A DNA stretch of 64,000 nucleotides from Candidatus Abzuiibacterium crystallinum (GCA_002787155.1 PCVY01000023.1:6828-70827); one strand, 5' to 3'; counted from the first letter of the stretch, positions 15,479 through 64,000 are shown. The notes: generated from the sequence alone by a model not told the origin. A program made the numbers and translations.

Positions 15479-15482
15479 TGAA

Positions 15483-17906: not shown

Positions 17907-17911
17907 TTATC

Positions 17912-19771: not shown

Positions 19772-19803
19772 TCATTAATAGGTTCTATTAACATTTCTAA
19801 CCG

Positions 19804-19960: not shown

Positions 19961-20114
19961 GCTTTGCCATGGCAAACGTCAACAGAACCCAGTCTTTTCC
20001 CAACAAATTTTTCTCTTTTCGTTAAAGATTTCCGTCTCCTGTCGATATTTATGATAGTACAGGTAAGAGTACTTCCTTGTTCCTGGTTCCTGGTTTTAAA
20101 GAGAGCGACTCTGA

Positions 20115-20366
20115 ATGACATTGATCCGAAAAGGGCAGCTGGCAAAAGAGCTTAACATTCCTTGGCCGACCGTGAAGTATTACACGGCAGTGGGGCTTTT
20201 CCCCGTGGCGGGCAGAACGCCCAATGGTCAGCACTTGTACCACTTACCGCTCATTCGAGAAAAATACGAACGCATCAAAACGCTGAAACGTCAGCGTTTG
20301 ACGATCGGTGAAATTATCGATCGTCTCAAAATGGAGAGTATTGTCCAAGAAACAAGCGCGGTTTAA
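20115..20366 (+). CDS. MerR-family HTH DNA-binding protein
   Basis: 83 aa. [45 protein letters not shown]...[10 protein letters not shown] fits the MerR winged-HTH pattern. Confidence 0.7.
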
Positions 20367-20389
20367 GCGCGCGCGAGAGGAGAACGGCG

Positions 20390-21445: not shown

Positions 21446-21454
21446 ATTATTCAC

Positions 21455-23320: not shown

Positions 23321-23334
23321 ACACAGGACAACAG

Positions 23335-23946: not shown

Positions 23947-23955
23947 GCAGATACC

Positions 23956-24489
23956 ATGGCACTCAGCAAAAAAGATAAAATTCAATTAGGCATCATCGTG
24001 ATGATGGTCGGACTGATTATTTTTAAATTGCCGGACTTCGTGCGGTTCGTGAGCGGTACCACACAAAAAGCCTCCTCAGGCGTTCCAAATGCCTTACCGG
24101 CACTGCCCGAGAATGCGCCCGATTTTTTGAAGGCCATGGTCATGCAAGTACGCAGCGGCACCGCTCATCCTCATTTCAATTTAACGCAAGAGCGGGCTCT
24201 TAGAGAACAGCAAGCGCTTCTCAAAGAACAATCCTGGGGAAGAGATCCGTTTTTTTCGATCCCCATTGATGAATCGCGGTCCAAAAAAATCGAAGTCACC
24301 GACAGCTCCGAATTGGTTCTCAAAGCGATCTCATTAAAAGGCACAACCGCCATGGCCATTATTAACCAAACGGTCATTCATGTCGGTGATGAAATTTTGG
24401 GAATGACTGTCAAATCCATTGAGCGCGGTCGTGTGATTTTAGCGAACAGCGAACGCGAACGTGTTTTACGTTTTGGAGGCATGACATGA
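23956..24489 (+). CDS. PilP/GspC-like small periplasmic protein
   Basis: 177 aa. It has an N-terminal TM helix and a C-terminal beta-rich segment (LKAISLKGTTAMAIINQTVIHVGDEILGMTVKSIERGRVIL), as in PilP / GspC HR domains. It overlaps the secretin gene by 4 nt. Confidence 0.45.
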   Translation: MALSKKDKIQLGIIVMMVGLIIFKLPDFVRFVSGTTQKASSGVPNALPALPENAPDFLKAMVMQVRSGTAHPHFNLTQERALREQQALLKEQSWGRDPFFSIPIDESRSKKIEVTDSSELVLKAISLKGTTAMAIINQTVIHVGDEILGMTVKSIERGRVILANSERERVLRFGGMT

Positions 24490-26147: not shown

Positions 26148-26264
26148 TGATTTTTTACCCCCATCTCATCAGCCCTGATTTATAATAGAAATTAGCGCCG
26201 TGCGCGAGTTTCTCCCTTTCCCCTCAAATAAGGGGGAGAGGAAATTCGGAATGTCAAAAAATAG

Positions 26265-31526: not shown

Positions 31527-31701
31527 AAATATGACCTAATATATGACTATTATAAAATAGAATTATATTATATTAATGTAAGTTGTTTATATATAATGAC
31601 TTACATATCATATTTTTTTCATTTCTATCCTTGTAATTTACCGGATATGCGGTAGACTTTCTAAAGTGCTTTAGTAAGTCAGTTCGCATGGTAAATAATG
31701 C

Positions 31702-34700
31702 ATGTTCATCCCTAAAAATATCCAGAGAGCCATAGCCTTTTTTCTTGCCATTTCATTCTCTTTATCGAATGGCCCAACGCTTTTACTTGCCGAAACTTAT
31801 CCGGGAAGCAGCCTGCCATACCATGCGAGCTCTGTGAATCCAAATGCTATTTTGGATTCCCTTAAGCTTCCCGGTGAGTTAGGCATTGTTCAAGAGGTTT
31901 ATAGCGCGGTACCAGGTACAACGGTGCCAGGTTCACAGAACCCGGCACCGGCTGTACCTGGTACCGGAATTGGTTTCAAAGTTAATCAACTGGTCATCCT
32001 CGTGCAAAATGCCCACGCCAATTATGATTCAGAGTCAAACGTCCGCAAAATCATCCAGTTCTTCCAAGAGCACTATCAATTAGGACTTGTTTTACTGGAA
32101 GGCGGGGAAGGCAAGTTAGACCCGCTTTTTTTTAAATCTTTTCCCGATGGCAAAATAAAAGAAAAACTGCTGGATCAATATTTAAAACATGGGGATTTAC
32201 AAGGCGGTGAAGCAGCAGCCATTTTGAATCATTCAAACAACCCAACGAGTTATTGGGGCATTGAAGATGAAACTTTGTACCAGCAAAACAAAGCGGCCTT
32301 CTTAAAAGCCATTGTTCAAACGGATCAAATCTTAAAACAGCTTACTCAAAAAGAAGCCGCACTCGAGGAAAACATTGCTTCATTGCCTGAATCATCACAA
32401 ACCTTTTACAAGGCTTGGCAGGCTTTTCATGCGGATGAGATGAATTTGCTGGAATACGTGAAAACGTTAGCTGAGCATACATCGGGTACCGGTTCTGTTG
32501 ACAGTGTCATTCCCGCTCGTCTTTGGCGGGAATCTACTGTGATCGGTGCTCTTGTGCGCTCATTTCCCGAACTTGCCAAATTGTTGGAAGTAGAGAAAGG
32601 CGAGCAAGCCCTCCAAAAAAGCGAAATTGACATGACCGTCAACCAACTGTTGAAAGAATTTCAATCAACTGCGCTGCCGGCGCTGTCAGTCGAATCACAG
32701 AAAGAATGGGGCCAGCGGATCCAGGATTATCAAACCGGCCGGCTCGGCGTGGGTTTTTTGATCAAACAGCTTGAAAGTTTTCTTACCATTCCCGATGTTC
32801 TAAAACCTGCTATTCAGCACGCCCAAACCATTTCTTCCGTCCGGGGAACAGAAATATTCCATGAACTTGAGCATTTAGAGAATGCTGTTCGCGATCAATT
32901 GCCGGGGCGTGAGCGCCTTCATCAAGTTAACGAACTGCATCTCTTGAAACGGTTTGCGCGTTTAGAAATTACACATGAAGAGTGGAAGGTCATTGCGAGC
33001 GCAGCGAAGCAATCTCAAGACCAAGGATTGCTTCGGTCATTTCATTCCCTCGCAATGACAGAAATGCTTAAGAACCATTTCACTTTCTACCAACTCGCAC
33101 TCAAGCGTGACGGCATTTTATCCGGCCGCATTCTCGAAATCATGCGCCGTGAATCTCAAAAAGTTTCGCTCGTGGTGACCGGCGGTTTTCATGAAAGCGG
33201 TATCAAAGAGCGCCTCCGGGCAAACGGCACCGCTTATGTTTTGATTTCTCCTGCGATTCAGGAAGTCGGATCAAACGAGGCTTACCTCAATGCCATGCAC
33301 GACAAGCGTTCTTTTATGAAATATTTTCAAGGCAGTTATTGGGATGCTTTGGCAAAGGATTACATGCAGCAATCGTCAGCGGCTGCGGGTCCGCAGGAAG
33401 AAAAGTTTATTTTTAAGCAGTGGCGCGATCAACTCATCCAAAACACGCTGCAGGAGGGCAGAATCACGCAGGCAACGCGTTACACGCGCTATTTGGATTC
33501 ATTTTTACAAACCGAGGGAAAACCAGCGGATGACAAAGTTGGCAGAAAAACTCAATTAGAAGGTGCTTTCGAAAGTTTCCTTTCAACTTATTTTAAACAG
33601 CATCAAGCTGATTTGAATGCCAAGCTTGATCATTTTGCGGCAGGTTTCAAAAATATGCTCACACAGGGCACCTTCACGCAAGGGGCGGTCGAAGCCTTGT
33701 TGCGTCAAACACAAGTCCTGCAAACGGCTCAACTCGCACCGGATCTCGCTTTGATTCCGGCCTGGAACCAATTTCATTTAAGTGAAGCAACGATTGAAAC
33801 ACTGCCTGATATCAACCAACCTCTTTGGCTCGAGCACAAGCAAAAATCCGAACTCAGGAGTGAAGAGGTAGACTCTGATTATTGGTATGCTTATGGTGAG
33901 GAATTCCTTATTTTGATGGAAGAGGTGGGGTACCGGATAGATGAAACTGACCTTGAAGGTGATATAACTCTGGAGGTAGAGACAGTATCAGACGATCGCT
34001 TTCCTAAAGATTTTAGCAAATTAGCTAAAAGTGTTCCCGAATCGGACCTCACACGTTTACGCGACACATATATCCATATTCTAAAGAATGCCATTGGGAA
34101 AAGTCGAACACTTGAGGAGATAGTTGAAGGCTTGAGCACTTTAATATTAAGGCAGGCAGGAATTCGATTAAATGACAGAAAATTAATTGAAGCCATTACT
34201 GATATTTTACTAACCTATAAAGAAAAAGGGGTGACGGGACCCACCCTGCAGCTGCGCCACGTTTATCTATTTCCAAGATATGGTGATGTGAATGAAATCA
34301 TTCAATTACTGGCCAACCATCGAGGGAAACGCGGAACCTTGAGCCAAACCCAACGGCAACTGATTGCACAGCAACTCGAAAACATGAAAGAGCAATGGCA
34401 AGCAAATTACGAAAGAGCTCAAGCCGAAAAAACCGAAGAACCTAAGGTTGATGGTCAACCCAAAACCGGTGAATCGCTTTGGCTGGAGGGTCAACCAAAA
34501 CCCGAACTCAGAAACGCAAAAGATTATACTCAGATGAGTGTCAAAGAATTGCTTGTAGAACTTCAATCAACTCGAAGTCAAAGTAGTCAAGTCAATTTTA
34601 AAATACTTAGGATTACCAGCGAGCTGGAGCAGCGCTCAGAGAAGATGTTAGACAGCGAGATAGTGGCGACTATCAATGCTTTACTTTCTGCATTGATGTT

Positions 34701-58700: not shown

Positions 58701-61700
58701 TCATGCGCTGATCGGCATGCGGACCGAGGAGGCACATCAACAACGTGCATCACTTTTGGTGCAGCTTAAAAATGAAGTGTCTTATGCAAGCCTCAGTGAA
58801 CTGACAGTCATCATTTCTGTTCTCTTCGATTTAATAAAGGCATATGAAGATTCAAGCCAAAGCGAGCAGGCGCTGATCCGGTCGATTTTCAAAAAGGTGA
58901 TTAAACGTCTTGATCAAACAGAACTGCTCCATCTGAGCCAACGCTTGTTAGGTGTTTTCCAATCGATGGATAGTTCCGAATATTTGGCGCATCAAGCCCG
59001 AGAATCGTTGGTAAAAGCTTTTATTGCGGTCACGCAAAACATTGATTACTCAGCTTTTCCGCGCGTGATTGAAATCATGCTTAATTTTGCGCAATCACGT
59101 GAGCTGCAATATGATATCGGCGGCACACGTGGGGAGCCGGCAAGGTTAAGATTTGAGTTGGCACCCGCTCTCGCGGCTATGGTGAAGCGTGTTCCGCGAA
59201 ATAAGCGTCTTCAAACCATTCAATTTTTGCTTGATCATCTTCGTTTGATGGCTCAAACGTACGAAACCGTGAATATGGGTTCAGAGATCGTCCGGTATTC
59301 GTTGAATGAGATAACAGAGCAAATGGATTCCCGCGCGTTGCTTGATCTGACTCAATTATTATGGCGCACATTGGAATTACTGGAAGATTCAAGCAGGTCT
59401 GCCTTTGATGTGAAGTTTAGGATTCTTTATGTTTTGGATGATGTGATAGGGAAAGAGGCCGAAGTAAACTCTAGCCGTTTGACGGAAGACTGGCGTCACA
59501 GGATTGATCAATTGATATCGTATTTACGTCGGACACCTAATCACAAGAGAGATACATTTGATATCAGATGGATGGTCAGACGGATTTTAATGACCATTAC
59601 CTCAAAACTTGAGGGGCCTAGACTTAACGATGCTGTTGCCGGGCTTTTAGATCAACTGGAGTCTATCCATGACTCTGATGATGTCAGTAACGGCGCCAGG
59701 CAGGTGATAGCGGATGTTTTGGCTAAAGCCGTTCATGGTTATGATAAGGCGTTATTGTCTCGTGCGGCATCCGTGCTTTTTGAAACGTCAAAATTAATTG
59801 TCACGCAAAATCAAGAAGCCAATCAAGCAAAAGCCGCATATGGAAAAGTATTAGTGGAAATTGTTTTACGGCTGGATGAATCCGCATTGTCTGCCCTGGT
59901 AGCGCCTCTCGGGCAATTACTCGATTCCGTTATCCCTATACACAAAGATAGAGTGATTCAGTACGAGAGAGATTCGCTTGGCGCAGCTTTATCAATTGTT
60001 ATTTTGCGATTACACCAGATTAATTTTCATTATGTAAGAGATCCCAGCGCTTATCCAGATCCCAATGATTATATTGATTTTTTACAATATAACATCGCAA
60101 TGCTATTTAACCTCTATATCGAAGACCCTTCTTTTTCCGCGCAGACTAAATGGGATGCCATTGAGCAATTCACTCGAGATGTTATGGGTGACGATCAAGT
60201 GCTTCCGGAAGCAAAGCGCGAGGCCCTGATGGGAAAAATTGGCACATACCGTGAACAGTTGGATGCTGCTTACAAAAGGCATCAGTCCGAGGAAGGCGGC
60301 AGCCAAGACACCGGCCCTGAAGTCCAGGATGAACCGGGCGATTCGCTTTGGTTGGCACGTGCTTCTACCGGAAAGTCAGAACTCAGGGAGGATGCGCTAA
60401 GTCGGATGACAGAGAATCAGTTATTTGATGCATTAATATCCATATCATTTCATGACGACACAACCATTTTTCATCGTTATGCAGGTCCTTTGATATGGGA
60501 ATTGGCCGCAAGGGTAAGGCGTATTAAGAACCCGCTTAGTCAGGAGGTTTTGCTTCAGATGGTGCCAAAACTCCTGGAAGTTTACTTGAGGCATAAAGTT
60601 GTTGAGGAATGGCTTGATCAATTAAGGCAGGAAATCGATCATACACTCAGCGACATTGCCAAACGGTTAAAAAATCAAGAACGTACAGAAATGTTGAAGA
60701 TGATTTTGGATTTCTTGTATTCATTCCCAGGCGCCGGGGTTGAGCTGAATCGCGTCCGGGTAACTGCGGGAGACGTTTTGCGGGAAATCGCAAGAGGCAC
60801 TGATGCCGAAGAACTGCCTGATTTATTAAATTCGGTTTTATCCATTTATCAAGCAATCAAAGGATCAGACAGAGATGCCAATCAAGCCAGATGGAGAATG
60901 GGAAGTGCGTTAAAAGAAATCGCTAAACGTATTGATTCATCCCAATTACTTCCCTTGGTTACACCTCTTTTGGATTCTCTTTCACTGATGGCAGATCCAA
61001 GAGACCCGTCAAGCGCGTACGCAAATACGGCATACCGCACTGTTGCCAATATTTTAAGAACCATCGTGAAACGCATAGATCCCCATCAACTGCCTGAAAT
61101 AAAAGCGCCGCTTTTAGGTGCGCTGACGCATATACAAGGCGACACCGAAGCTGCGCGTTTTGCACGGGGTGATATTAGCAGATTGCTTGCGGAACATTAT
61201 TTACGCTCACATGGATTAGCCTTAAGCGGACGCGGGGGTAATTTACTCAAAGCTTTTGCGGATGTTTTTGCGGCCGCATCACCGGACGGAATATCGGTAT
61301 TTCCTCTCTATGGTGATCAAAAAGAAATTGATCGTCTTTTTCAAAGTGCCGCAGACAAAAATGGCCGCATAGCACCTCAAATGCGTCAGCAACTCATTTC
61401 ACAACTTCAAACTTACCAAGAACAATTAATCGCCGCGTATCAAAGGGATCAGAGATCAGGGAACAGGGATCAGGGGACAGGGAACAGGTCACAAGACACG
61501 GGAACAGATGAGACGCTTTGGGCGGCGGGGGTTGCCGGCAGCGTGAGTGCGGGAGCCATCGCGTCCGCGGCCCGCAGTGAACCATCGACTCGCAGCGAAC
61601 TGCGCTCAAAAGATTATTTCCATCAGGCAACAGAGAACTTGCTGCGCGAATTGGCCGCGCTTCAAGGGTCTAGCGATGATGTCAATCAACGCAGGAAATG

Positions 61701-64000
61701 GATGGCGGATGCGCTGGACGGAGAGGTTATTAAGAGAGTACAGTCTTCGATGCTTCCCGTGTTTTTATATCCGCTCCTCCGCCAGCTTGATGCGATTGAA
61801 AACGCCGGTGTATTAGCCAACCAAGCCAGAGCATCTCTTGGGAATCATTTGGTAACCATCGCCGTCTATGTTGATGCCGGTCATTTACCGGCCATGTCAG
61901 GAGTTACGATGAAAGCTTTGGCGCGAATTCAGGGGGATGATCCCGCAGCTAATAATGCCAGAGGCGTGATGACATCGATTTTAAGACAAGTTACAAGACG
62001 CATCGAACCGCATGAACTGCTTCAAATCAAAGGGGCGTTTCTCGCAGAACTCGCAAAACCTCTGGGCAATGGTCAAGAAGCACGCTATGTAAGGTGGGGT
62101 ATTTTTTATTCATTAGAAGAGCTTGCTAAACGGATTGACACGGCAGAACTGCCGCACTTAACGGCCGTGATGCTGAATGAACTAGTGAATACGGCTGAGC
62201 GAACGGATGATACTGCCAATGAAACCAAGCAATCGGTCGGAAGGGTTTTAAAAGAAATTGCTCATCGTATTGATTCTGATGCCCTGCCCGGTCTGATAGC
62301 GCCTGTCGTGGCGGCGTTGGATGGTGTCACAGACCTCAGCAAATCTGCCTACGAAGTTCAAAGCTCTCTCACATCGGCGTTGACAGCAATCGCAAATCGT
62401 GTGCATGAACGGGAACTTCCCCAACTGATTCCGCCGCTTCTTGGGACATTAAAAAAGATTTCGGAAGCAAAAGGCGAAGATGAAAAAAAGGCGGCTGATG
62501 ATGTGAGACTGCACGCGGCGGTTGCCGTCCAGGCAGTGTCTCGGCGTGTTGCTGATGTTCGTGAGATTGATCTGCTTGCTGCGTCCATGACGGATGAACT
62601 TGCGAAATTCAAAGACCCGAATCATTCAACGTTAGCCACACTAAGAGCGGTTGCAGAAGCGCTTGCCGTTATTTATATGAGGCTTCACGATCTTTCATTA
62701 AAAAATGAACCGTTATTTCACGCCCTCAGAGATCTTTTGAAAGTGGAATATGTAGTTGACGCAAAGCTCTTTCCCGCTTATGGAAGCTTGGAAAATGTTA
62801 AACAGATCCTCCAACACGCAGATCCGGCACGGATGACTGCCCAATTGAACGCTTACCGCAAACAATTAATCGCTGAGTATCAAAGAGATCAGGGAACAGG
62901 GATCAGGGATCAGGTGTCGGGGGATGGGGATCAGGGGACGGGGAACAGGTCAAAAGACACGAGAACAAATGAAACCCTTTGGACGGCGGGGGTTACCGGC
63001 GGTGTGAGTGCGGGAGCGGAGATTACAGGAAGAAGTGAAATGCGGAAAAAAGTAGACAGCACTGCCGGTTCTCGCTCCGAACCCCACTTGAGTCCAACCG
63101 ACTCAAGTGCTGTCCGTCCCGAAAAGCCAACCGCTTTTCGAGCGGAACTGCGAACCAAAGATTATTCCCGCATGAGCGTTGATGAATTGTTAAATGAACT
63201 TCAGTCAATCAAAGGATCAACTGATGATGCCAATTGGGCAAGACGAGTCATTACCGATGTCTTCACAGAAATATCAAAAAGAATTGATGAAACCGAACTT
63301 CCCGCTATTTCACAAGCGTTGTTGATCACTTTAAAAGAAATCAAAGGATCAACTATTTATGCCAATATTTATGCCAATTGGGCAAGACGGGCCATTGCCG
63401 ATGCCCTCGGAGAAATATCAAAAAGAATTGCTGAAACCGAACTTCCCGCTCTTTCACAAGCCTTGTTGATTGCTTTAAAAGAAATCAAAGGATCAACTTT
63501 TGATGCCCATCCGGCAAGACGGGCCATTGCTGATGCCTTCCGAGAAATATCAAAAAGAATTGATGAAACCGAACTTCCCGCTATTTCACAAGCCTTGTTG
63601 ATCGCTTTAAAAGAAATCGAAGGATCAACTGATGATGCCAAGCATATGAGATGGGTCATTGTCGATGCCCTCAGAGAAATATCAAAAAGAATTGATGAAA
63701 CTGAACTCATCGCTATTTCACAAGCCTTGTTGGCAGCTTTGAAGAAAATCAAAGGATCAACAACTGATGATTATGCTCATGGTGCAAGAGAGGCTATTGG
63801 CAAAACCCTAGCTGTTATTGTGTTGCGATATCATCAAATCCCTATTTCAGATGAGAGAAATGATTTATTGAGCGCTCTTCAAGATGTCTTTACACTTGAA
63901 ATGAACGGTGTTTCCATCTATCCCATAGAAAACCATCATCCATTGAATAACCCAAACAATTCCATTCATCAAATCTTTAAACAACATGGCCAAAACCACG
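31702..64000 (+). CDS. Giant modular protein, 3' end outside the window (at least 10,766 codons visible): signal/anchor, N-terminal domain, many ARM/HEAT-like repeat cassettes, central hexa-AAA+ (midasin/dynein/MoxR type), HExxH segment, VWA(MIDAS), then more cassettes
   Basis: Frame +1 has a TAA at 31696-31698, an ATG at 31702, and then no stop that I found. I hand-translated about 40 separate 60-nt rows between 31.7 and 64.0 kb. All read sensibly in frame +1 (position mod 3 = 1), for example 35401 MTADELLQALK, 44851 GVTSGGKSTT, 53536 DESGS, 63961 SIHQIFKQHGQNH. The ORF track lists no frame +1 ORF of 60 aa or more here, which is what a single ORF with no stop codon in the window would give. 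All listed + ORFs in this span are frame 2, and the rest are antisense. Confidence 0.9.
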   Translation, partial: MFIPKNIQRAIAFFLAISFSLSNGPTLLLAETYPGSSLPYHASSVNPNAILDSLKLPGELGIVQEVYSAVPGTTVPGSQNPAPAVPGTGIGFKVNQLVILVQNAHANYDSESNVRKIIQFFQEHYQLGLVLLEGGEGKLDPLFFKSFPDGKIKEKLLDQYLKHGDLQGGEAAAILNHSNNPTSYWGIEDETLYQQNKAAFLKAIVQTDQILKQLTQKEAALEENIASLPESSQTFYKAWQAFHADEMNLLEYVKTLAEHTSGTGSVDSVIPARLWRESTVIGALVRSFPELAKLLEVEKGEQALQKSEIDMTVNQLLKEFQSTALPALSVESQKEWGQRIQDYQTGRLGVGFLIKQLESFLTIPDVLKPAIQHAQTISSVRGTEIFHELEHLENAVRDQLPGRERLHQVNELHLLKRFARLEITHEEWKVIASAAKQSQDQGLLRSFHSLAMTEMLKNHFTFYQLALKRDGILSGRILEIMRRESQKVSLVVTGGFHESGIKERLRANGTAYVLISPAIQEVGSNEAYLNAMHDKRSFMKYFQGSYWDALAKDYMQQSSAAAGPQEEKFIFKQWRDQLIQNTLQEGRITQATRYTRYLDSFLQTEGKPADDKVGRKTQLEGAFESFLSTYFKQHQADLNAKLDHFAAGFKNMLTQGTFTQGAVEALLRQTQVLQTAQLAPDLALIPAWNQFHLSEATIETLPDINQPLWLEHKQKSELRSEEVDSDYWYAYGEEFLILMEEVGYRIDETDLEGDITLEVETVSDDRFPKDFSKLAKSVPESDLTRLRDTYIHILKNAIGKSRTLEEIVEGLSTLILRQAGIRLNDRKLIEAITDILLTYKEKGVTGPTLQLRHVYLFPRYGDVNEIIQLLANHRGKRGTLSQTQRQLIAQQLENMKEQWQANYERAQAEKTEEPKVDGQPKTGESLWLEGQPKPELRNAKDYTQMSVKELLVELQSTRSQSSQVNFKILRITSELEQRSEKMLDSEIVATINALLSALMLIEPSSEDALHAHTSLRAVLERLIEEVSQDELVSIIPVLHTTLEQIHGTSSQANMARVTITRILEKLSKKVPLPALASIQNALLLALKLTEGSDIDTSHTRNNIAHCLALVTLRYYQVIHLTDNRLPFISLEKLLSMVSSGPDRISLFPIYGDLEVIGQILQSQDQTNMIQQLNAYREQLMAQYQREQRSGIRGQGTGNSLPDHDPLWTAGVAGGVNAGAGADRAELRNKNYSQMTADELLQALKSVQGTNEASTDTRRALSNALNAAFRRMNQEELPAIFQDSLAAIKEIGESDERTQARDWIAMPLFALIQKIDEDQLAFVFENLIAVLREIKGSSHAAIQVRFSIIQNLILIVHRRHHRSYTSPGDKLAQALHVLFSAASSKVWVFETYGSLHALDQIFESKDDKTIIAKLSAYREQLIALSLREEAPRVKGQEQQDTGGGSGDTDQNDSIWAATVLGPANVSASIKIHSSRSELRMKRRLDPLDQLLNDLKSLKGSGDTTNGIRADLADALTTLGRKLTESQLFLIVDPIITQLEQIEGSRYTANRAKLAITSFINMAASRLSPTQLGGLVKPLFNQIVFKRELEELTSNIPVSFGDSLLEVVREIDQTQLQEVARLLFDYLTNLPDDLEYTNLSLRSICRALTMVFKRIDTFPWSEAVAAFKTLHRNTEQTRTFYPAFPWISDVLAMALLRMHQIEIEKGRDSLFSALSRLLEFHKDDTVLFLRHGDFNEVNSILQSHADRSTKTAQLNHYREQLLALHQREQGAGSREQGTPPHSVGRIRPPAEGIRSQDTDHELWLSGPVGAGAVGVGAAVLNTKSELRTHGDDEYDVMGFESKYWKMDLNELLDELWFILWFNEEGWGKSFDRNTIIEITDHIQRKSKEADQDELVPAARRLFDALEKTVKYFNRDTAAPHLAVARALAAVHWKIHGFNTSEWSNELFLTLEDIFVIAIGEKSLFLSYSSPAAIKQILELKDQNAMIYQLKALREQILAAYQREQGTGDSAAHRRADPSSGGREQEPRDTGSHEPLWTAGVGAGVLLSAKSELRVQFFQIALTKLVDFARQNASLFFRYVINRQKVVERDDDDYEKMSTDELLDDLQFIHLAYAFRHVPPQRRWDISLSLGWRVQKMTKPELLDFSRKLLTILTTTKGSSENAHQIRSAAAGVFKEVVRIIPDTELLAIFKALFSALKITHQSLSVAFSHAARIEERAITDTFEIIRKRMPKADFSQVVDEYLAVLEEIKNRKFLFWEKTIQHQTLHLMGEAVYSFPEAQLRRTAKELIAILRALKDQGGNVNEIRILLLYVFRNIVERLPEADLGGYVTELLSTFDAIKGSNEHAGEAKGDIGHILSKAAERMPPSELPHFADEALIRLESTPNRGNQAYQTTRAMAEALWGFAKAVDPEKADPQKMSKIMNLLLEKLKLIKGKGDNEEWAKIHILLALGAIAKKIPHQELPGLSNAILSELTHYEFNDGLKGRLIDVLIAIADSIDLAELPKISNELLDVLKEMGELNDDEDGGYQTLVTIAVFFEQITPKISETELPRISKAFLTALAAIKGSSYNLDRVRRFVGDVLALISLRINHLPLDNKPLIEQLQKFFSLAPASHSLFPMYGDLNEIGHILKLEDHKQVIAQLNAYQAQLLARYQREQGTPPHSVGRIRPPAEGNREQGTGIRSQDTDHDLWLSGPVGAGIRAELRNKDYSKMTIDELLQALQMGRSDQEAQELKIGIAKVLKESAKTMQPTELQHLSNRLLLLLEAAPAKGRAGRQTIQAVADIYQVIAMKIDPAELPKILEALLTASKLPLKYDVDGRDAKRFITIALTKVAERIPEEKLPTILNYALLELSHYDLDDQLTYSLIFVLDAVANRIQPTELPRILHALLDKLKTIKSLDDKDEEDLIWQVVMIAAFTFKSIAARMSATELPAISKRLLEIRSLAKRDSTQAEKTRDALLAPFPAIAARIDKKELPNLFDQFVDILKNTHRTDASPGSSSNMRLRSRKVLAIIFLRNHQLPLDDETLAKALENLLGIHSPTDSLFPIYGEFSEIDRILRLPGREQMIAQLTIYRKQLIAQSQRDQGTGNREQGTGDGEQGTGIRSQDTESNDTLWVISPAVERSELRTKDYSRMSVDELLNELQSIKGSTIDVNWAREAIADTLTEILKRIDPTKLPAISQALLTALKEIKGFADDANRTRWAITFSFPEILQRIDPTELPAISQALLITLKEIKGLSNATNEARRTITFSFPEILQRIDPTELPAISQALLIALKEIEGSTDAANQARWVIADAFREMPKRIDKSELPAISQTLLAALKEIKGSTIGANQAREAIGKTLAVIVFRHHQIPVTDETNDLLSALQDVFTLEMNGVSIYPIENHHPLNNPDNPIHQIFKQHDQDYAQIMSQLNRYREQLSAQHQRDQGTGNREQGTGIRSQDTDHDLWLSGPVGVGAGLTKAGRQSADHDKRVELRNESPNLEDLSPTDEAREVEVVIKAIHALTDSVWKQPLPRLNTRSNAGAELASLVNQCVHLIRDTKMTVNEQIQLVKAFLHLLESFESLYLKTLVGSASHLQLHWLLRHVMTAIPFGQITPIRHEIYLSQEIARRQGPSRNTTLHIDFLSEILIMLALKQAGFKGTWDTLAVDKIYNTNVWKELGDFYSGTVRVRREGIGFLHQYADDAEINKIINIWLDDSGNLDHTRAEQVITQLKLYIDQLLHQIKIKANEEPGTDDAEQSADSRPEDIWLRGSFRPQGGLGPSKSELRTAKSKSDLGKRLTQLAKDLEAEVEARQIKGLAKQLLENKSTRTKTDAQIESEIKEKAADDAAMDRLIAHLKIARALKEAGNDFLRDYEQTHYLKLAKIQQPNAVLWGLRFLDLDDIQDPEIRRLMGKLQSLLMVNEFFGRSSAAFVESVLTEFIVNTVIGDDFGMTELLTSLDPNQNLIELFQDWGVNVQLKYSREHTGIQALYDIARLYSKVFPEFNNNARTGFITHDFKEMLREPEGDADRNQQARALARGGAAQALNLLTIRLLGLPAGRTMEQQWQELFKITEKGIPNLQKPEHLNGARAEDILAGLAEISKTSQGQLKEVVAELIQGRFKLLVNHDVERFKQIGIIIGFTGIDGFAKIPFGRLREKYHLTEGSEEEGRLLKIVAQISRTAREGTGGLIEEVFDLYSQEAGEHLDDLNKLLQAFSYFVRLVNFHHDYERLVLEGDIGKVNNEALFVSLRDLKRTLDIVKKNDAKGMDIRDAIASAVKRRYYNRLSIEDRGIVRDLMARHRLIHENDLLDFDYVIDGFKNGSSRIRIYRKRKSGPARFKRTEVKPGEYKMELIQESVGKPELLLEIPLAQPLANVDPKIILNETTRRNLANILDALEVEEGKRFNPVLEFGVTSGGKSTTAALVAKILGVGFTRIQINERTDEFDLFGSFQPYEINITLEEAIQLLQEALATNNYNGLEDVFSRLKSDQTGQFWENYFNAQERQTIELGKDSRYPQRSVLERQRAAIRDKLKQLADKQLELAQSLKSLSAQERRLIDSKTDNPVWQAQLAQLRREEAEGFDQLNRIKSIAFMLNHEVGLRYKEGRFLTAYKRGDLILLDEVNLANEEMLGVLYQLLTLGYLEYNGKVIEPPLGKQARILATANPSGYAGRRRMSEAFMNRFEIIHVDEMTDEEMRDIVVGQMMKDLIASGRYTAGDFEQNSDEAPEVWDKKINKILQEEYGITRESTRLLAGVQRKFNSILATGSFPRMGSDSNYVFTLRNLQRIAGDVKERKENGERITLETWIREAYGEYAGVLMRPSTQPSYTAERLKPDESLPAEHHLWDDPDYKTIRRVFTTFMGELIAGESHQSYDDAFDELIRRHFETIPYVYDSTAHAIKLDGLLTQGAEPNDQNPIEPLIEVGSTKMVQRQILKGIRRNIPTLLVGQSGGGKTEIIGDLVNRLGRQYISVSLGDATLESLIGTMEYNRMEKRFVYRRGVLVKAMEEGSVLVLEELNMAKSGILEILNEYFDDGTFTNPFTLKQVAVHRDFRLFATMNPIQGETGENLGRVSLSPALRNRFREIWVPHKKTDAEMNEILIGKFKQLGVEKIEKATGAKIIGFFRAYEEAFKDQADPVYYTSLRDLNRIAKIMAYLINELDMHESDALARAIDRVYRLRMQNSGALAVVDQILIELKIKIPGAGQLSYQSRNGVLEVRDGQTLVAKLDLSLIQAKLRDRIRGELSADTDPAELEALTEKRLKTLLDEAVLVENPRTKAHLLDLMEAVTLPSGEVKKGKFNPIFLLGETAGGKSSLTKYLALHLLGQNYTRIQFNERTDEFDLFGAYEPRELHMGLDRAFRIVQNAMEQGEWVKIKKALKLWQTGALTEDDLSELEMIEKVEERIRTVDLEASQQITKILKDASEEDVLGDPGQKREAERKLKTIAFLIENNMLNVELEFREGRLLQAIRRGDVVVLDEMNLANEEALAVLYQLLTLGYVEYYHKDTRQVERITPAPGFKLMATANPASYAGRHRLSEALMNRFEIHYVMNMTPQEMTEILRGENSHEPVFERDQSFQTTVEKLTLLQENINEALRNGQFPEVSSDQVQGYLFTLRNLKRVLRNTAELLRQGDSSPPSESLIRQAYLEYLGVLGRSDASIKTLQSLFKAPKQFPQFNPDFRISFESMTMPNGQSGILAGGFKVVRRFYEDEAEGVSHDADVIEELEEGATTNLIRQAIAKGLLDSRMAVLLVGQSGGGKTEMIGDLARRLGWRYRSVSLGNATLESLVGGYAMDHETKKFRYIPGILIQAMREGAILVLEEMNMAPSGLLEILNEYFDESTFTNPMTGQKEKIHPNFRLFATMNPEKGVTSTSEGRVGLSPALRSRFSEVWVPHIRTQAETERIIRKKFSNRGVSHVPPKVTEDIYRVYDQYRRFVEEGKIGQESNEGYYVGLRDVVKIIDLVAQDQSRGIPMEEALRFAFKRIFYLRLNSDADRKTVQEEILKTYDMSKTEYQWKSVNDHWVVKRTQWQTAEVPKALLKEKGFILTPQSQEELALLLEAMQRGVTIQGKAAARSFNPMMLFGETSGGKSTLVEIAASIFRTPFTRIQMNQRTDEYDLLGSYHPVEVKLTFEQAYEVVQSVIRQNQTLRTAQVLRALHITDDHVKSVLRINPDQTMPLEQLQKRFLEEHVLANARQGNPKSIEQMKDIGALLLNGVAGIELIFREGMLLQAMGDRETGRPGQVVLLDEFNLANEEAIGILYQLLTLGYIEFQGRKIFPGKGFQLIVSGNPSRYSGRRRMSEAFMNRFEILNRPSMTKEEMVKILTEKYALEASGISKSGIEALVDLQFDIEETAQSIGFDFFNQDNTYRFSLRNLERIVQDLKKRMEVEPERSVQVMLREEAYLEYAGLLSQSTDEDDPKKNNLKVLAGLFKKHFNWEIDPETVLPEFKKQTLVKGEDEWISLNGVRVRKLSPHQMLESLQLELNEEIRSGALADDDGGKLVLLTEANLVRILAQVEKRLASHDPLSRKEIMREEARTEYLKMLGESPRLVKRLDELINQHFYTQAERIEPLVELKSTRLVRMQILKGFRDGGVIRSRDTEGREVLNHRSQPVLLVGQSGGGKTEEIADAARELNRPYISVALGAATIESLIGSFVLNSETGTFEFRKGIMVRAMEEGSALTLEELNMAESSIIEVLNEYFDRGTMTIQERNVPIRIHPNFRLFATMNPTEGRTGRNAGRIPLSPALRSRFREVWVRNERNKGEQYRLMLGGIHALVSSLITRGLPEDRPDELENLELDWTRRRLAETAGQQVQFASSESLSAALKAGPSITLPRHDSSAIRMAKASEDGTPKEKPTSKEWERMAINERKRIYEEQFRIVSHGIMNIMSSDEAIELGLSRDGSHHWAYAPSINTLIYNSREIMTLSLDALIGVGVHESMHRYGTRYTSLFADFLDAQSLAGSFFNILEDGRIENWARYRFRGVERPLRTLNDEIIFDFEDDNEMVERMIKTSKDGKDIGHAGAIGNFFLYLAKRGSDPGAGKVIEKFLKAFEERDPALKEDIENLMQAGYFGGARDEDIIDAARQRKAQGVFSAIPVSPDDVGVYRVDPNPSEETILQLAIHQGILIRDFIMPVVYKWAVLQAEGEGSGKSGSGGAPGRGKIVIRPGKPGEESTPISPREWKKIWDSLSENDKKKILDTLDDLKKKAQDRTAKDSIDHKNAAIDAEITEPKSERDRLMSQMGKMIHELAGYLRDLIQNTIRPKEITGLKKGRIDVRRLMNAMARGFTDMRFYKQRIIPDKKDIKFTLIIDESGSMAGMGESGKGPEDNAAAKGYRTLMGAALLMEVLETLGIDFAVRGYGDDTFLHKRFKGQRIELSDQRAHFPPVPDGYATRKEKDTLIDDLYGSIGNHGGNNEGPALQAAIRDILKAGGEKHFVIVITDAMGDTKAIQEILDEVRAKKGMIGSTQTEFIAIGLGNDTESVPEVYGSEHGFWLHDDEVHKLPSEIKKLLQNVIRGVYAPGSGTPSRFSQFGKRMTDSASMAGAAGVGASTASASSAARSHSELRADDLESKVRKIIIRLARSQGDGLSAEQEHTDMLRRLGVLANRRSPEEVFEIVIEMMADETVGFSRKENAIRRAIMEAFLKELTPSAVLTSSAINELQDLMHTLAREAHSPEAQAEIDVIKSRIKELRLKLIMRQEVFTYAKITQLLSLDPSETVDLFLESLLSGDYSSGVDRKRMASNFGNLISNLNGELLLQTTEQIIEAIRTDPRAHIDPYENLEKYGSKIAYERHSILLEGLLVAVKKVDRSILQSIVDCMVQDLQYERSKKLKAEILAIALLRQENIITTNPSQEEKSLINALVNLPGRSTFQTSDLKEITLMLQHAKPKRGRLSSQAIKVLREQIKNFDEQIRARATRAQNENEQRSEDNLLPPDTESELWLENPRAELRTENDGSRRVDQLLKELQSIQGSSDEANRIRRDIGRALKKTVEENAIIDPSHAAQVLISTLHQIKGSNAGAYKAKEAIGWALAEVAKKIETTELPKISQAFISVLEAIEGSSAAATNLRLNAAWMLDGTAQRIDLTELPAIFQALISALGQLRGSDAGTRNGRTDFGFVLTDIVFRYHQLAPYLESSESELHSAMRNLMTMLSFSDDVPLFPRYGDWDTLHQIFEMGDSKKIIQNLKKFREQIFAQYQREQRSGDREQGTRDRLQDTGTNETLWTAGVAGSVSAGAFVPAARSELRTKNYFRTAVDKLLRKLRSMRVHRLLRELKGLIGNTTSDAHWARLDIAGALIRISKKTDSTDLPAVTQALFLVLSTTERSSSLGLEEERRLGVFRALREISKRIDSAELSAILHALFSVLRETKGSFVSAAYERRAIANIFIEISRRIDQTELPAMMQGLLSVLLEVFEDSGSADHDAIEAVAGVLNEISKRIDQANLLNFTQALLLALSEIKGSNQDASTARTKIAIVLREISKSIADTELPTVTQALLKALNESEGFDTYASDARAQIAVALEEILKRIDETELPAVAQALISISNKFKSLGYSFWPNSTIQEALAVIVFRHHQMPVTDETNDLLSALQDVFTLEMNGVSIYPIENHHPLNNPDNPIHQIFKQHGQDHAQIMSQLNRYREQLSAQHQREQRSGDRGQGTGNSLPDQDSLWAAGVGLGTFLFTARNELRNGWLAERGHYLVHRFVHMVYGIRIKFRKKDHITERVLALINELKSLKGSGPDVVQSITDLATSLVENLKHIDQKDLPYVLDVLLSTLKQIKGSDDRATDARVWITTVLGTMVDRLDKKERTKLVKEFLSISRQMKGTMVNNIFVWTNILQTFAAMLAYLDDHERPLIIEELVTALKDIEDPTGNADLIRKNISETLSIFFFHRHGYPDLENKDPLFVALKKLFGATQNAVSLFPRYGDLTEVDRILQLEDREKIISQLNAYREQLMAQYQRDQRSGNRDQVSGDGGQGSGNRSQDMNDDLWLVGLAGAAAVHRTELRGVESLFRQLINLVRSALGRKQPAGSLKTKLHALIGMRTEEAHQQRASLLVQLKNEVSYASLSELTVIISVLFDLIKAYEDSSQSEQALIRSIFKKVIKRLDQTELLHLSQRLLGVFQSMDSSEYLAHQARESLVKAFIAVTQNIDYSAFPRVIEIMLNFAQSRELQYDIGGTRGEPARLRFELAPALAAMVKRVPRNKRLQTIQFLLDHLRLMAQTYETVNMGSEIVRYSLNEITEQMDSRALLDLTQLLWRTLELLEDSSRSAFDVKFRILYVLDDVIGKEAEVNSSRLTEDWRHRIDQLISYLRRTPNHKRDTFDIRWMVRRILMTITSKLEGPRLNDAVAGLLDQLESIHDSDDVSNGARQVIADVLAKAVHGYDKALLSRAASVLFETSKLIVTQNQEANQAKAAYGKVLVEIVLRLDESALSALVAPLGQLLDSVIPIHKDRVIQYERDSLGAALSIVILRLHQINFHYVRDPSAYPDPNDYIDFLQYNIAMLFNLYIEDPSFSAQTKWDAIEQFTRDVMGDDQVLPEAKREALMGKIGTYREQLDAAYKRHQSEEGGSQDTGPEVQDEPGDSLWLARASTGKSELREDALSRMTENQLFDALISISFHDDTTIFHRYAGPLIWELAARVRRIKNPLSQEVLLQMVPKLLEVYLRHKVVEEWLDQLRQEIDHTLSDIAKRLKNQERTEMLKMILDFLYSFPGAGVELNRVRVTAGDVLREIARGTDAEELPDLLNSVLSIYQAIKGSDRDANQARWRMGSALKEIAKRIDSSQLLPLVTPLLDSLSLMADPRDPSSAYANTAYRTVANILRTIVKRIDPHQLPEIKAPLLGALTHIQGDTEAARFARGDISRLLAEHYLRSHGLALSGRGGNLLKAFADVFAAASPDGISVFPLYGDQKEIDRLFQSAADKNGRIAPQMRQQLISQLQTYQEQLIAAYQRDQRSGNRDQGTGNRSQDTGTDETLWAAGVAGSVSAGAIASAARSEPSTRSELRSKDYFHQATENLLRELAALQGSSDDVNQRRKWMADALDGEVIKRVQSSMLPVFLYPLLRQLDAIENAGVLANQARASLGNHLVTIAVYVDAGHLPAMSGVTMKALARIQGDDPAANNARGVMTSILRQVTRRIEPHELLQIKGAFLAELAKPLGNGQEARYVRWGIFYSLEELAKRIDTAELPHLTAVMLNELVNTAERTDDTANETKQSVGRVLKEIAHRIDSDALPGLIAPVVAALDGVTDLSKSAYEVQSSLTSALTAIANRVHERELPQLIPPLLGTLKKISEAKGEDEKKAADDVRLHAAVAVQAVSRRVADVREIDLLAASMTDELAKFKDPNHSTLATLRAVAEALAVIYMRLHDLSLKNEPLFHALRDLLKVEYVVDAKLFPAYGSLENVKQILQHADPARMTAQLNAYRKQLIAEYQRDQGTGIRDQVSGDGDQGTGNRSKDTRTNETLWTAGVTGGVSAGAEITGRSEMRKKVDSTAGSRSEPHLSPTDSSAVRPEKPTAFRAELRTKDYSRMSVDELLNELQSIKGSTDDANWARRVITDVFTEISKRIDETELPAISQALLITLKEIKGSTIYANIYANWARRAIADALGEISKRIAETELPALSQALLIALKEIKGSTFDAHPARRAIADAFREISKRIDETELPAISQALLIALKEIEGSTDDAKHMRWVIVDALREISKRIDETELIAISQALLAALKKIKGSTTDDYAHGAREAIGKTLAVIVLRYHQIPISDERNDLLSALQDVFTLEMNGVSIYPIENHHPLNNPNNSIHQIFKQHGQNH
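32989..33059. mobile_element. MITE-like palindrome embedded in frame in the giant ORF
   Basis: GTCATTGCGAG (32989-32999) / CTCGCAATGAC (33049-33059), with inner GAAGCAATC (33006-33014) / GATTGCTTC (33026-33034). It is the same family as the intergenic copy at 11504-11585. It is translated as VIASAAKQSQDQGLLRSFHSLAMT. Confidence 0.7.
37029..37067. repeat. GC-rich motif, copy 1 in the giant gene
   Basis: TCCGCCACACAGCGTCGGGCGGATCCGTCCTCCGGCGGA. The core lies at 37046-37067 and is read as (G)RIRPPAE, shifted by one nucleotide relative to the 19037 copy. Confidence 0.8.
37720..37758. repeat. GC-rich motif, copy 2 in the giant gene
   Basis: TCCGCCGCACATCGTCGGGCGGATCCGTCCTCCGGCGGA, with the core at 37737-37758. 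Confidence 0.8.
39666..39704. repeat. GC-rich motif, copy 3 in the giant gene
   Basis: TCCGCCACACAGCGTCGGGCGGATCCGTCCTCCGGCGGA is identical to copy 1 over 39 nt. Confidence 0.8.
40939..40994 (+). repeat. Heptanucleotide microsatellite (CAGGGAA)4 plus two degenerate 14-mers, coding for an inter-cassette linker
   Basis: There are four perfect CAGGGAA units (40939-40966), then CAGGGGACGGGGAA and CAGGGGACGGGGAT. The translation cycles through all three phases (QGTGNREQGTG...). Confidence 0.85.
41120..41710 (+). repeat. Tandem 132-bp (44-aa) ARM/HEAT-like coding repeats, ~5 units
   Basis: TGCAAAGAATTGATCCAACCGAACTCCCCGCTATTTCACAAGC recurs at 41321 and 41453, exactly 132 nt apart. The unit consensus is a.R.aIa.a..EI.KRID.TELPAISQALL.ALKEIKGS. 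Confidence 0.85.
41959..41993 (+). repeat. Heptanucleotide microsatellite (CAGGGAA)3 plus one 14-mer, a paralogous linker
   Basis: There are three perfect units (41959-41979), then CAGGGGACGGGGAT. The flanks match the 40939 tract but the unit count differs. Confidence 0.85.
44770..45740 (+). other. AAA+ module 1 (type A, AAA_5/dynein-midasin-MoxR type) of the giant protein
   Basis: Walker A GVTSGGKST (44851-44877). It has RIQINERTDEFDLFGSF and Walker B LILLDEVNLA (DE at 45475-45480). It also has ATANPSGYAGRRRMSEAFMNRFEIIHV. Confidence 0.85.
46390..46960 (+). other. AAA+ module 2 (type B)
   Basis: Walker A GQSGGGKTE (46453-46479). The Walker B-like motif VLVLEELNMA has EE at 46654-46659. It has FRLFATMNP...GRVSLSPALRNRFREIWV. 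Confidence 0.85.
47500..48300 (+). other. AAA+ module 3 (type A)
   Basis: Walker A GETAGGKSS (47527-47553). It has RIQFNERTDEFDLFGAY and Walker B VVVLDEMNLA (DE at 48040-48045). It also has ATANPASYAGRHRLSEALMNRFEIHYV. Confidence 0.85.
48790..49330 (+). other. AAA+ module 4 (type B)
   Basis: Walker A GQSGGGKTE (48865-48891). The motif ILVLEEMNMA has EE at 49066-49071. It has FRLFATMNP...GRVGLSPALRSRFSEVWV. Confidence 0.85.
49780..50590 (+). other. AAA+ module 5 (type A)
   Basis: Walker A GETSGGKST (49855-49881). It has RIQMNQRTDEYDLLGSY and Walker B VVLLDEFNLA (DE at 50347-50352). It also has SGNPSRYSGRRRMSEAFMNRFEILN. Confidence 0.85.
51350..51900 (+). other. AAA+ module 6 (type B)
   Basis: Walker A GQSGGGKTE (51457-51483). 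The motif ALTLEELNMA has EE at 51658-51663. It has FRLFATMNP...GRIPLSPALRSRFREVWV. Confidence 0.85.
52300..52570 (+). other. HExxH zincin-like segment of the giant protein
   Basis: LIGVGVHESMHRYGT carries HESMH at 52414-52428. NILEDGRIENW follows ~25 residues later. The pattern resembles the putative metallopeptidase module found N-terminal to some VWA-like domains (DUF2201_N type, from memory). Confidence 0.5.
53500..54130 (+). other. von Willebrand factor A domain with a MIDAS motif
   Basis: KDIKFTLIIDESGSMAG carries the DxSxS motif DESGS at 53536-53550. Later it has GGNNEGPALQAAI and FVIVITDAMGD, which fit the remaining MIDAS-loop positions. Confidence 0.8.
56440..57240 (+). repeat. Array of ~44-46-aa ARM/HEAT-like coding repeats (~6 units, more diverged)
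   Basis: The pattern ...ISK(R/K)ID..(E/D)L(P/S)A..QAL...L.E.KGS... recurs through this span. The antisense ORF 56988..57236 is its shadow. Confidence 0.7.
63190..63800 (+). repeat. Tandem ~132-bp (44-aa) ARM/HEAT-like coding repeats, ~5 units; paralogous to 41120-41710
   Basis: GAAATATCAAAAAGAATTGATGAAACCGAACTTCCCGCTATTTCACAAGCC recurs with few changes. The antisense ORF 63369..63752 is its shadow. Confidence 0.85.

Follow-up and report, generated by a model that had tools for sequence, protein, structure and literature searches.

Does a 64,000-nt stretch of DNA from Candidatus Abzuiibacterium crystallinum (GCA_002787155.1 PCVY01000023.1:6828-70827; this whole stretch is called the window below) really carry a single gene of more than 32 kb, and what could the protein encoded by it do? 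An earlier description of the window, made by a model from the sequence alone (here, the original prediction), proposed one continuous open reading frame (ORF) that begins at ATG 31702 and is still open at the window end. This ORF is a genuine protein-coding gene and not a product of chance. The host genome belongs to the phylum Candidatus Omnitrophota, and the proteins encoded upstream of the giant gene have identical counterparts in NCBI/UniRef under Candidatus Abzuiibacterium crystallinum. As to the function, we give a probability of about 0.55 to the reading that this is a genuine single gene for a new architectural subtype of the Omnitrophota giant proteins, in which an ATP-driven remodelling engine is carried on a giant scaffold and exported for cell-cell contact.

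31702-64000, plus strand: giant ORF of at least 10,766 codons, open at the window end, with no frame +1 stop

A computational scan of the whole frame bears the original prediction out. Frame +1 is free of stops from 31699 to 63999 (10,767 codons), and translation from ATG 31702, which is indeed preceded by an in-frame TAA at 31696-31698, gives 10,766 amino acids (aa) without a stop; the window contains no N. In the same 32.3 kb, each of the five other frames has 513-720 stops (48-67 per 1000 codons), and at that stop density the chance of 10,766 stop-free codons is roughly e^-600. The runner-up open frame in the whole window has 691 codons. Furthermore, the GC content at codon positions 1, 2 and 3 of the giant ORF is 0.56, 0.38 and 0.44, a contrast that fits a coding sequence. 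The ORF listing shows over the giant gene only nine ORFs of 101-149 aa, all outside frame +1; frame +1 is blank there because the listing drops ORFs running off the source, as had been supposed. No Rfam families and no tRNAs were found in the 64-kb window.

What kind of protein is it? Its centre (aa ~4190-7520, counted here and below from ATG 31702) contains a candidate ATP-driven engine, preceded by a region of its own.

41956-44718, plus strand: unique pre-ring region (aa 3419-4339), without internal repeats in self-BLAST
44719-51981, plus strand: six tandem AAA+ modules (AAA_5)
52234-53001, plus strand: HExxH domain, GVGVHESMHRYGTRY ... NILEDGRIENW
53014-53301, plus strand: charged low-complexity linker rich in K, E, G and D (aa ~7105-7200)
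53344-54201, plus strand: metal-ion-dependent adhesion site (MIDAS)/von Willebrand A (VWA) domain (aa ~7215-7500)

The six-module AAA+ region and the metal-dependent adhesion domain had both been proposed before and are both present. Pfam AAA_5 matches the ring region in eight stretches (E-value 1.3e-107), and a profile of the module core matches exactly six times. Each module possesses a Walker A motif (at aa 4384, 4918, 5276, 5722, 6052 and 6586) and a Walker B motif, which follows after 204, 63, 167, 63, 160 and ~63 aa, respectively. The six modules are arranged as three two-module units, each consisting of a long-insert module and then a compact one, and the units are 40-50% identical to one another. 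The pre-ring region, which is conserved in the relatives P0001, P0003, P0004 and P0024, is closed by an AAA-lid-like segment (aa 4192-4273; Pfam AAA_lid_5 "Midasin AAA lid", E-value 0.004).

Module 6 is separated from the MIDAS domain by only ~450 aa, i.e. by the HExxH domain and the ~100-aa K/E/G-rich linker, an equivalent of which is found in relatives. The HExxH domain (HESMHR, H at aa 6905) is a putative zincin-like metallopeptidase or metal site; it had no match in Pfam or in the PDB. Its motif is present in all long relatives inspected, and in an alignment of six diverse relatives H61, E62, H65, R66, N90 and D94 are invariant, as are D435, S437, G438, S439, M440, T565 and D566 of the MIDAS domain. 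The latter contains the sequence IIDESGSM, a TD motif and a midasin-like pre-MIDAS segment, and its metal-coordinating DxSxS...T..D residues are intact in an alignment to the Rea1 MIDAS (6qt8). Pfam matches of this region are weak (VWA, E-value 7.5e-4; VWA_CoxE, 0.013); besides these and the lid match, Pfam scans over all 10,766 aa returned AAA-type families only. Searches with PADLOC defence models and NCBIfam curated families gave only sub-threshold matches to generic P-loop proteins, GvpN and CobS, and a known defence system or a curated NCBI family was accordingly rejected.

Among known machines, the engine most resembles midasin (Rea1/Mdn1), which also carries six AAA_5 modules in one chain. 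Midasin is the best PDB match of the AAA region (E-value 1e-86 over six stretches), followed by NorQ, CobS and CbbQ (~1e-8), and single modules give the same ranking, with midasin first. A family profile of the HExxH-MIDAS region, built from six diverse members, found in the PDB the isolated Rea1 MIDAS (2.3e-13), the C-terminal MIDAS of full midasins (~1e-12) and CobT (7e-10); the HExxH half of the profile had no PDB match. Both proteins alternate long-insert and compact modules, and in both a flexible charged linker leads to a MIDAS on the C-terminal side.

The differences are nevertheless considerable. Midasin is eukaryotic, whereas the giant protein is bacterial, and the modules of the latter are only 23-29% identical to midasin cores. 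The three units are 40-50% identical among themselves, which implies an internal triplication or homogenisation independent of midasin. The structured linker of midasin, whose size is given as ~1,700 aa in the abstract of PMC11603028, and its long D/E-rich region are absent in the giant protein. Conversely, only the giant protein has an HExxH domain between ring and MIDAS, and only there is the engine placed inside ~7 kaa (thousand amino acids) of HEAT cassettes behind a secretion-type N-terminus. A correspondence of the long-insert modules to midasin AAA2/4/6 and of the compact ones to AAA1/3/5 was considered and dropped: the spacing speaks for an alternation, a neighbour-joining tree suggested the opposite pairing, and bootstrapped identities resolve neither (the intervals for the affinity of odd and even modules span zero). 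The best BLAST matches of the modules pile onto midasin AAA3 and AAA2/4. Midasin strips assembly factors with ubiquitin-like domains from eukaryotic pre-60S particles, a role that is not expected in a bacterium. The giant protein would thus appear to work like midasin, but it is not a midasin, and module-for-module orthology is not demonstrable.

The second group of relatives are MoxR-class AAA+ proteins acting with VWA partners (NorQ-NorD, CbbQ-CbbO, CobS-CobT). They belong to the same AAA_5 clade as the modules of the giant protein, whose VWA domain is of the CobT/CoxE type found in these pairs. Judged by their sequences, ring and gripper of the giant protein are each closest to midasin among solved structures, and both belong to the MoxR-VWA clade. 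They would follow its logic, in which a target is remodelled jointly by a ring ATPase and an adaptor with a MIDAS (PMC7159879; also PMC13036017 and PMC9976466). MoxR-VWA pairs, however, consist of a homo-hexamer of ~270-330-aa subunits and a separate VWA protein, whereas in the giant protein the six modules and the VWA domain are encoded in one ORF. The origin of six tandem AAA+ domains has been placed early in eukaryotes, from single-domain MoxR proteins (PMC3495828, PMC3791482). In the literature, our coverage of which is incomplete, we found no described bacterial midasin-like protein.

How widespread is the engine? A HMMER search with the HExxH-MIDAS region against 1.84 billion representative proteins returned 251 matches at E-values of 1e-3 or lower, 66 of them at 1e-10 or lower and 13 at 1e-30 or lower. 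The strong matches are proteins of 3-7.6 kaa from metagenome-assembled genomes (MAGs) of Omnitrophota and Elusimicrobiota, annotated as "AAA family ATPase" or "MoxR-like ATPase". Weaker ones include proteins of ~600 aa whose N-terminal part matches the HExxH region and which carry a VWA domain of the CobT type at the C-terminus; they look like free-standing partners, comparable to the VWA proteins that accompany MoxR ATPases as separate chains. When 185,579 species genomes were scanned for the pattern, 16 loci emerged; by taxon, ten were assigned to Omnitrophota/Omnitrophica, four to Elusimicrobiota/Elusimicrobia, two to Planctomycetota-type genomes and one to Oscillospiraceae, a sum of 17 that is not reconciled with the 16 loci. 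By these searches, the hexa-AAA-HExxH-MIDAS module is a rare bacterial family.

Motif counts give six AAA modules for the relatives P0001, P0050, P0060, P0194 and P0196 and two for P0015, P0128 and P0152. When the clade of the window protein is compared with the P0194/P0015 clade, identity is 37% from first-position to first-position modules and 36% from second-position to second-position modules, whereas first- and second-position modules share only 21-24%; the two-module unit is therefore ancestral. In the neighbour-joining tree, modules of the same type from one six-module protein cluster together, which suggests repeated independent triplication, homogenisation or concerted evolution of the AAA unit. 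The relatives with one two-module unit point to a trimer of pairs as an intermediate. The highest similarity to midasin cores (33-38%) is shown by modules of P0089 and P0196, and P0196 sits on the Omnitrophota contig of locus L020. We tentatively propose, as a possibility with more against it than for it, that the engine belongs to an undescribed family of prokaryotes (Omnitrophota, Elusimicrobiota and some Planctomycetota) and that this family is the closest relative of eukaryotic midasin (its sister, or donor or recipient in a transfer), with the six-module ring built repeatedly by triplication of an ancestral A-B unit still found in the two-AAA relatives.

Orthologues colinear with the giant gene are found in related genomes. 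The frame of the orthologue in locus L008 is 57% identical over 3,914 aa and that of L011 60-61%. One in-frame TAG is present in module 1 of L008-L010 (JGI, ENA and NCBI assemblies; position 18443-18445, codon 2814 of the frame from 10001), and one TAA (6614-6616) in module 4 of L011, a 3.4x coverage MAG that is the closest genome relative; the frames resume unchanged past these single stops, which may be nonsense mutations, sequencing errors or sites of read-through. In L007 (JGI 3300047491) the engine ORF ends right after the MIDAS domain, at a module border, and the next gene, at 11562-21601, is a distinct ORF that lies in another frame, exceeds 3,346 aa and has a hydrophobic start; it shows no BLAST similarity to the C-terminal cassettes of the window protein. 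In L014 the ORF ends ~600 aa past the MIDAS domain. Thus, the conserved core is the engine, and the arrays of cassettes vary; the gene is split, decaying or mis-sequenced in some relatives and intact in the window.

The remainder of the chain consists of an N-terminal domain and two long repeat arrays.

31864-33471, plus strand: TraB/TIKI/EreA/ChaN-like domain, putative hydrolase or protease (aa ~55-590)
33850-41955, plus strand: cassette array 1 (aa 717-3418), ~8 HEAT-like alpha-solenoid cassettes of 190-650 aa found by self-BLAST
54292-63999, plus strand: cassette array 2 (aa 7531-10766), ~8 further HEAT-like cassettes belonging to the family of array 1; the window end truncates the last
41121-41686, plus strand: 132-nt (44-aa) tandem repeats, 4.3 copies (Tandem Repeats Finder); similar arrays at 56895-57219 and 63227-63761
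35254-35297, 36994-37028, 40933-40998, 41953-41997, 56200-56244, 57538-57581, 58471-58536, 61444-61488 and 62887-62949, plus strand: imperfect AGGGAAC heptanucleotide runs of 5-9 units (Tandem Repeats Finder)

The N-terminal domain has the fold of the TraB/TIKI/EreA/ChaN superfamily and is homologous to stand-alone proteins of ~512 aa with similar hydrophobic N-termini. QxxHxN, E and GGFH are invariant in eight homologues of the domain; they may be the counterpart of the GxxH/E motifs of the superfamily. Pfam TraB/TIKI did not match it.

The cassettes make up ~60% of the chain. They were counted as full-length matches to a profile of the cassette end (...QLNxYREQLxAQxQ), which end at aa 905, 1185, 1424, 1765, 2000, 2651, 3078 and 3418 in array 1 and at aa 7884, 8167, 8613, 8924, 9526, 9915, 10395 and ~10785 in array 2. 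The helical repeats announced by the original prediction are therefore real, whereas the count of about 18 cassettes is not borne out, as ~16 are in view in the window. Copies in the two arrays are up to 71% identical at the amino acid level. An AlphaFold2 model of the cassette at aa 3079-3418, built on 16 paralogues, is all-alpha with stacked helix pairs (predicted local distance difference test score 83), its first 44 residues being disordered (linker). The top Foldseek matches of the model are importin-beta, Cse1, CLASP and CAND1, with weak E-values (best 6e-3); Pfam HEAT has no match in the giant protein and is present in the relative P0015. According to this model, the cassettes are predicted HEAT/ARM-type alpha-solenoids with stacked helix-turn-helix units of ~40-47 aa and disordered linkers between them. 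They contain the 44-aa (132-nt) tandem units found by Tandem Repeats Finder.

The borders of the cassettes are built in a regular way. The helical end is followed by a linker of the 7-aa repeat R[ED]QGTGN, three AGGGAAC units (21 nt) encoding one such repeat, then by D.LW, a G/A-rich stretch of 0-20 aa and SELR, so that the full context reads ...QLNxYREQLxAQxQ-(REQGTGN)n-..D.LW..SELR. The G/A-rich segments after "LW" were considered as transmembrane helices of a polytopic protein, a reading rejected on account of their variable length and low hydrophobicity. Gain or loss of one or two AGGGAAC units would shift the frame. The idea that the AGGGAAC runs are phase-variation switches is unsupported: the units are imperfectly repeated, and no length difference is seen in the three runs that an ENA contig of the same gene covers.

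Is the giant chain the final product? The pattern "W ... (G/A-rich, 0-20 aa) ... SE[LMP]R" occurs at aa 716, 1822, 3119, 3757, 7531, 8211, 8967, 9965 and 10445 (window ~33847 to ~63036) and is found at all module borders, among them those of the N-terminal domain, of the pre-ring region and of the engine behind the MIDAS domain. It recurs in relatives, e.g. as DLWLKGGGRSEVRAK in P0024 and as DWLAR...GASLG...E.SEL in P0049, and is a possible processing site. The protein might accordingly be a polyprotein that is cut at the W..(G/A-rich)..SE[LV]R borders by its own TraB/TIKI-like or HExxH domain into an N-terminal enzyme, HEAT cassettes and an engine of ~3.8 kaa. Two putative protease-type domains are present in the chain, the engine ORF of L007 ends just past the MIDAS domain at exactly such a border with a separate gene next to it, and processing by C39/S8 peptidases has been suggested for other Omnitrophota giants. 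However, the border motif could be structural; the distance from W to SELR ranges between 0 and 20 aa; a protease activity of either domain is putative; and the TraB/EreA fold also spans esterases and haem binders. We regard such processing as possible although doubtful; it would fit either localisation of the engine discussed below.

Where does the protein act? As the original prediction had it, the N-terminus resembles a secretion signal.

31702-31794, plus strand: signal-peptide-like N-terminus (aa 1-31), MFIPKNIQRAIAFFLAISFSLSNGPTLLLA, with the putative cleavage site before the following E

K5 and R9 are followed by AIAFFLAISFSL...LLA and the E behind the putative cleavage site. Among the candidate segments near the N-terminus, aa 1-31 is the most hydrophobic one (Kyte-Doolittle 1.65), and similar hydrophobic N-termini are found in the homologues P0041-P0047 and P0024; the feature is conserved in all homologues of the N-terminal domain. 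Furthermore, the giant protein has only four cysteines in 10,766 aa (0.037%) compared with 0.66% in 27 upstream proteins, an 18-fold depletion that is common to close relatives (three cysteines in 7,566 aa of P0024 and P0048 together). Eukaryotic midasins, with 1.2-2.6% cysteine, are not depleted. Kyte-Doolittle scans, which are a crude test, revealed no convincing internal transmembrane helix: no segment exceeds 1.8, and besides the N-terminus there are only weak segments that do not resemble transmembrane helices. The N-terminus, the avoidance of cysteine and the secretin/pilus neighbours described next suggest that the giant protein is exported and acts at the interface with another cell.

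3453-7662, plus strand: trehalose genes (OtsA-like GT20, trehalose phosphatase, DUF5752, TreT-type trehalose synthase)
7689-9716, plus strand: CLC chloride channel with CBS and TrkA-C domains
9773-29380, plus strand: type II secretion/type IV pilus-like cluster, identified by Pfam and by motifs in translations

This cluster encodes a GspE/MshE ATPase (T2SSE+MshEN), GspF (T2SSF), five prepilin-like proteins, a PilZ-like protein, a TPR protein, a ParA-like protein, PilM (PilM_2), a secretin and a PEGA protein. Five consecutive small ORFs of the GFTLIE/GFTLVE prepilin type and a 134-aa PilZ-like ORF with RxxxR...D.S..G lie at 13167-16043 and 17502-17906. The cluster is followed by psd and genes for a CDP-alcohol phosphatidyltransferase and a LysE-type transporter, and the giant gene starts 277 nt further on.

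Such a setting is known from Omnitrophota. ORFs of more than 20 kb occur in most Omnitrophota classes (Seymour et al. 2023, PMC10066038), and for one of these giants the same paper cites proteomics according to which it is induced in prey-attached cells. Omnitrophota giant genes are reported to follow a multi-subunit type II secretion/pilus-like locus that includes PilZ (West-Roberts et al. 2023, bioRxiv 10.1101/2023.11.21.568195), and a 2026 corpus contains 3,650 proteins of at least 10 kaa, HEAT-repeat scaffolds being among the classes (bioRxiv 10.64898/2026.06.07.730766). Midasin, dynein and MoxR are not mentioned in these giant-protein papers, and AAA_5 appears only in the domain legend of Supplementary Fig. 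S1. With the published giants (the 39,678-aa protein of Velamenicoccus archaeovorus, "Archaeovorins", dockerin-type proteins) the giant protein of the window shares the phylum, a single ORF of tens of kb, a signal-like N-terminus, the upstream locus of more than ten genes (GspD/E/F, prepilin-like proteins, PilZ), the scarcity of recognisable domains and a proposed role in cell contact.

The gene thus exceeds the 20 kb used by Seymour et al. and falls short of the 90 kb at which West-Roberts et al. call a gene giant; its product has ~11 kaa, compared with more than 30 kaa of Archaeovorin- and dockerin-type giants. In Pfam scans, neither the set of glycosyltransferases/hydrolases, methyltransferases and NUDIX domains of published giants nor their dockerin/TSP3 repeats were found in the window protein. 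Conversely, the window protein consists of HEAT-like cassettes around a hexa-AAA-HExxH-MIDAS engine, which is not discussed in the giant-protein papers. The gene therefore belongs to the known phenomenon of Omnitrophota giant genes, and its architecture fits neither published subtype. The earlier statement that the protein matches no characterised bacterial system was too strong in view of the published giant ORFs and their upstream locus; it holds for the midasin-like engine inside HEAT cassettes, which is absent from the literature searched.

MARTX toxins and RTX/Bap-type adhesins are likewise very large, repeat-rich, poor in cysteine and exported. Internal effector domains of MARTX toxins are freed by autoprocessing. 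The RTX, Ig-like and CPD domains of these proteins were not found in the giant protein in Pfam scans, and its gene lies beside a pilus/type II secretion-like locus, whereas theirs are found in the context of a type I system. We know of no toxin with an AAA+ ring.

How could the exported engine work? By analogy with midasin/Rea1, NorQ-NorD, CbbQ-CbbO and CobS-CobT, the six linked AAA+ modules would close into one ring. The tethered MIDAS domain would grip an acidic residue of a target protein via its metal ion, and ATP hydrolysis in the ring would pull or twist the target, which would thereby be remodelled or extracted; cleavage by the HExxH site may follow. The HEAT arrays would serve as long elastic scaffolds providing reach and binding surface. 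The genomic context suggests that the protein would leave the cytoplasm by Sec export and then be taken over by the secretin/pilus-like machine encoded next to it, which would serve contact with a host or prey cell. AAA+ ATPases require ATP. The engine would have to operate where ATP is present, most plausibly at or inside the partner cell, and this is the weakest step of the proposed mechanism: an exported AAA+ ring has no fuel, so it must work at or in the partner cell, or else the N-terminus is an anchor and the engine is cytoplasmic.

The last option would make the protein a giant MoxR-like assembly chaperone that stays in the producer cell, or anchored to the inner face of its envelope, and uses cytoplasmic ATP, for example for the assembly of the pilus/secretion machine or another envelope complex; its hydrophobic N-terminal segment would then be an anchor or a false signal. 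The ATPase motifs are kept in all six modules, the gene adjoins the pilus/secretion cluster, and MoxR-VWA pairs are described as cytoplasmic maturation factors. In addition, transmembrane helices adjoin the engine in the relatives P0015, P0020, P0060 and P0152 and could tether it to the membrane there. However, positive charges precede and none follow the hydrophobic segment, which favours an N-in/C-out orientation; the stand-alone homologues of the N-terminal domain have the same signal-like N-terminus; the chain-wide depletion of cysteine would be typical of exported proteins; and the giant protein itself has no internal transmembrane helix by the Kyte-Doolittle scans. We think the chaperone role unlikely and consider the exported engine somewhat more likely.

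Is the 32-kb frame, finally, assembled correctly? The gene calls of two public contigs share the start ATG 31702. NCBI contig PFGO01000018.1 (GCA_002781965.1) is 100% identical to window 20823-41425 (20.6 kb) and stops at the window equivalent of ~41,776, inside a 293-nt repeat of which another copy, 94% identical, lies at 57289; the giant gene is truncated there to 3,358 aa. ENA contig ERZ27293413 k141_303988 (71,961 bp) comes from an independent assembly and matches the window over 20.6 kb at 99.95% identity; the giant gene is called there with a length of 11,094 aa. A gene reaching the end of this contig would have 11,134 codons; the 40 spare codons imply a stop ~117 nt before the contig end. 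An 83-nt stretch of the ENA contig matches the window with 100% identity 132 nt further on than expected (41475 rather than 41343), so the ENA version has one 44-aa repeat unit fewer (~41343-41475). This in-frame difference in copy number is due to either strain variation or assembly collapse. From the length of the ENA gene call, corrected for the missing 132-nt unit, the full gene probably encodes ~11,100-11,140 aa (~33.3-33.4 kb), with the stop ~1.0-1.1 kb past 64000. It is thus true of the window that no 3' end is in view, as the original prediction stated, and the gene is probably only ~330-370 codons longer. The genome and metagenome contig collections searched contain no exact match to a 39-mer taken from the window end.

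That the frame results from a chimeric join, collapse or expansion across repeats is very improbable, even though internal DNA repeats reach 94% identity over 293 nt and 99% over 82 nt, the NCBI contig of the same organism ends inside the former and the ENA contig is one 132-nt unit shorter, since a mis-join would have to keep the frame stop-free for 10,766 codons, two assemblies span the first repeat array and agree closely on the total length, the unique centre of 4.3 kaa is colinear with orthologues of other genomes, and most repeat copies are diverged enough (60-88% DNA identity) to be resolvable by short reads. A residual uncertainty of plus or minus only a few 44-aa units is plausible.

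Several observations nevertheless speak against a single exported giant of the Omnitrophota type. Published giants are described as rich in transmembrane helices and SecA_DEAD domains, neither of which was found in the window protein; no internal transmembrane helices were found that could keep the engine in the cytoplasm; and the N-terminus and the depletion of cysteine point outside the cytoplasm, yet the AAA+ ring needs ATP. Related genes contain single in-frame stops, so that members of the family may be decaying or split. Two assemblies disagree by one 132-nt unit on the number of repeats, and the stop codon, lying outside the window with the 3' end of the gene, was not seen.

The gene adds a third architectural type to the giant proteins of nanobacterial Omnitrophota, whose functions are essentially unknown. 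Unlike most such giants, it would have a centre with a readable mechanism, an ATP-driven ring with a metal-dependent gripper. Export-type features are combined here with six apparently active ATPase sites, and where the engine gets its ATP becomes a sharp question; if the ATP comes from a partner cell, the protein would be a new kind of delivered effector. Furthermore, a covalent six-module AAA+ ring with a tethered MIDAS has been treated in the literature as a eukaryotic innovation (midasin, and dynein without MIDAS), and a bacterial family with both two- and six-module versions provides material for testing how such rings arise. If this family is indeed the nearest relative of midasin, six AAA+ domains and a MIDAS in one chain would not be an invention of eukaryotes only, and covalent six-module rings would have arisen from a two-module unit outside eukaryotes too.

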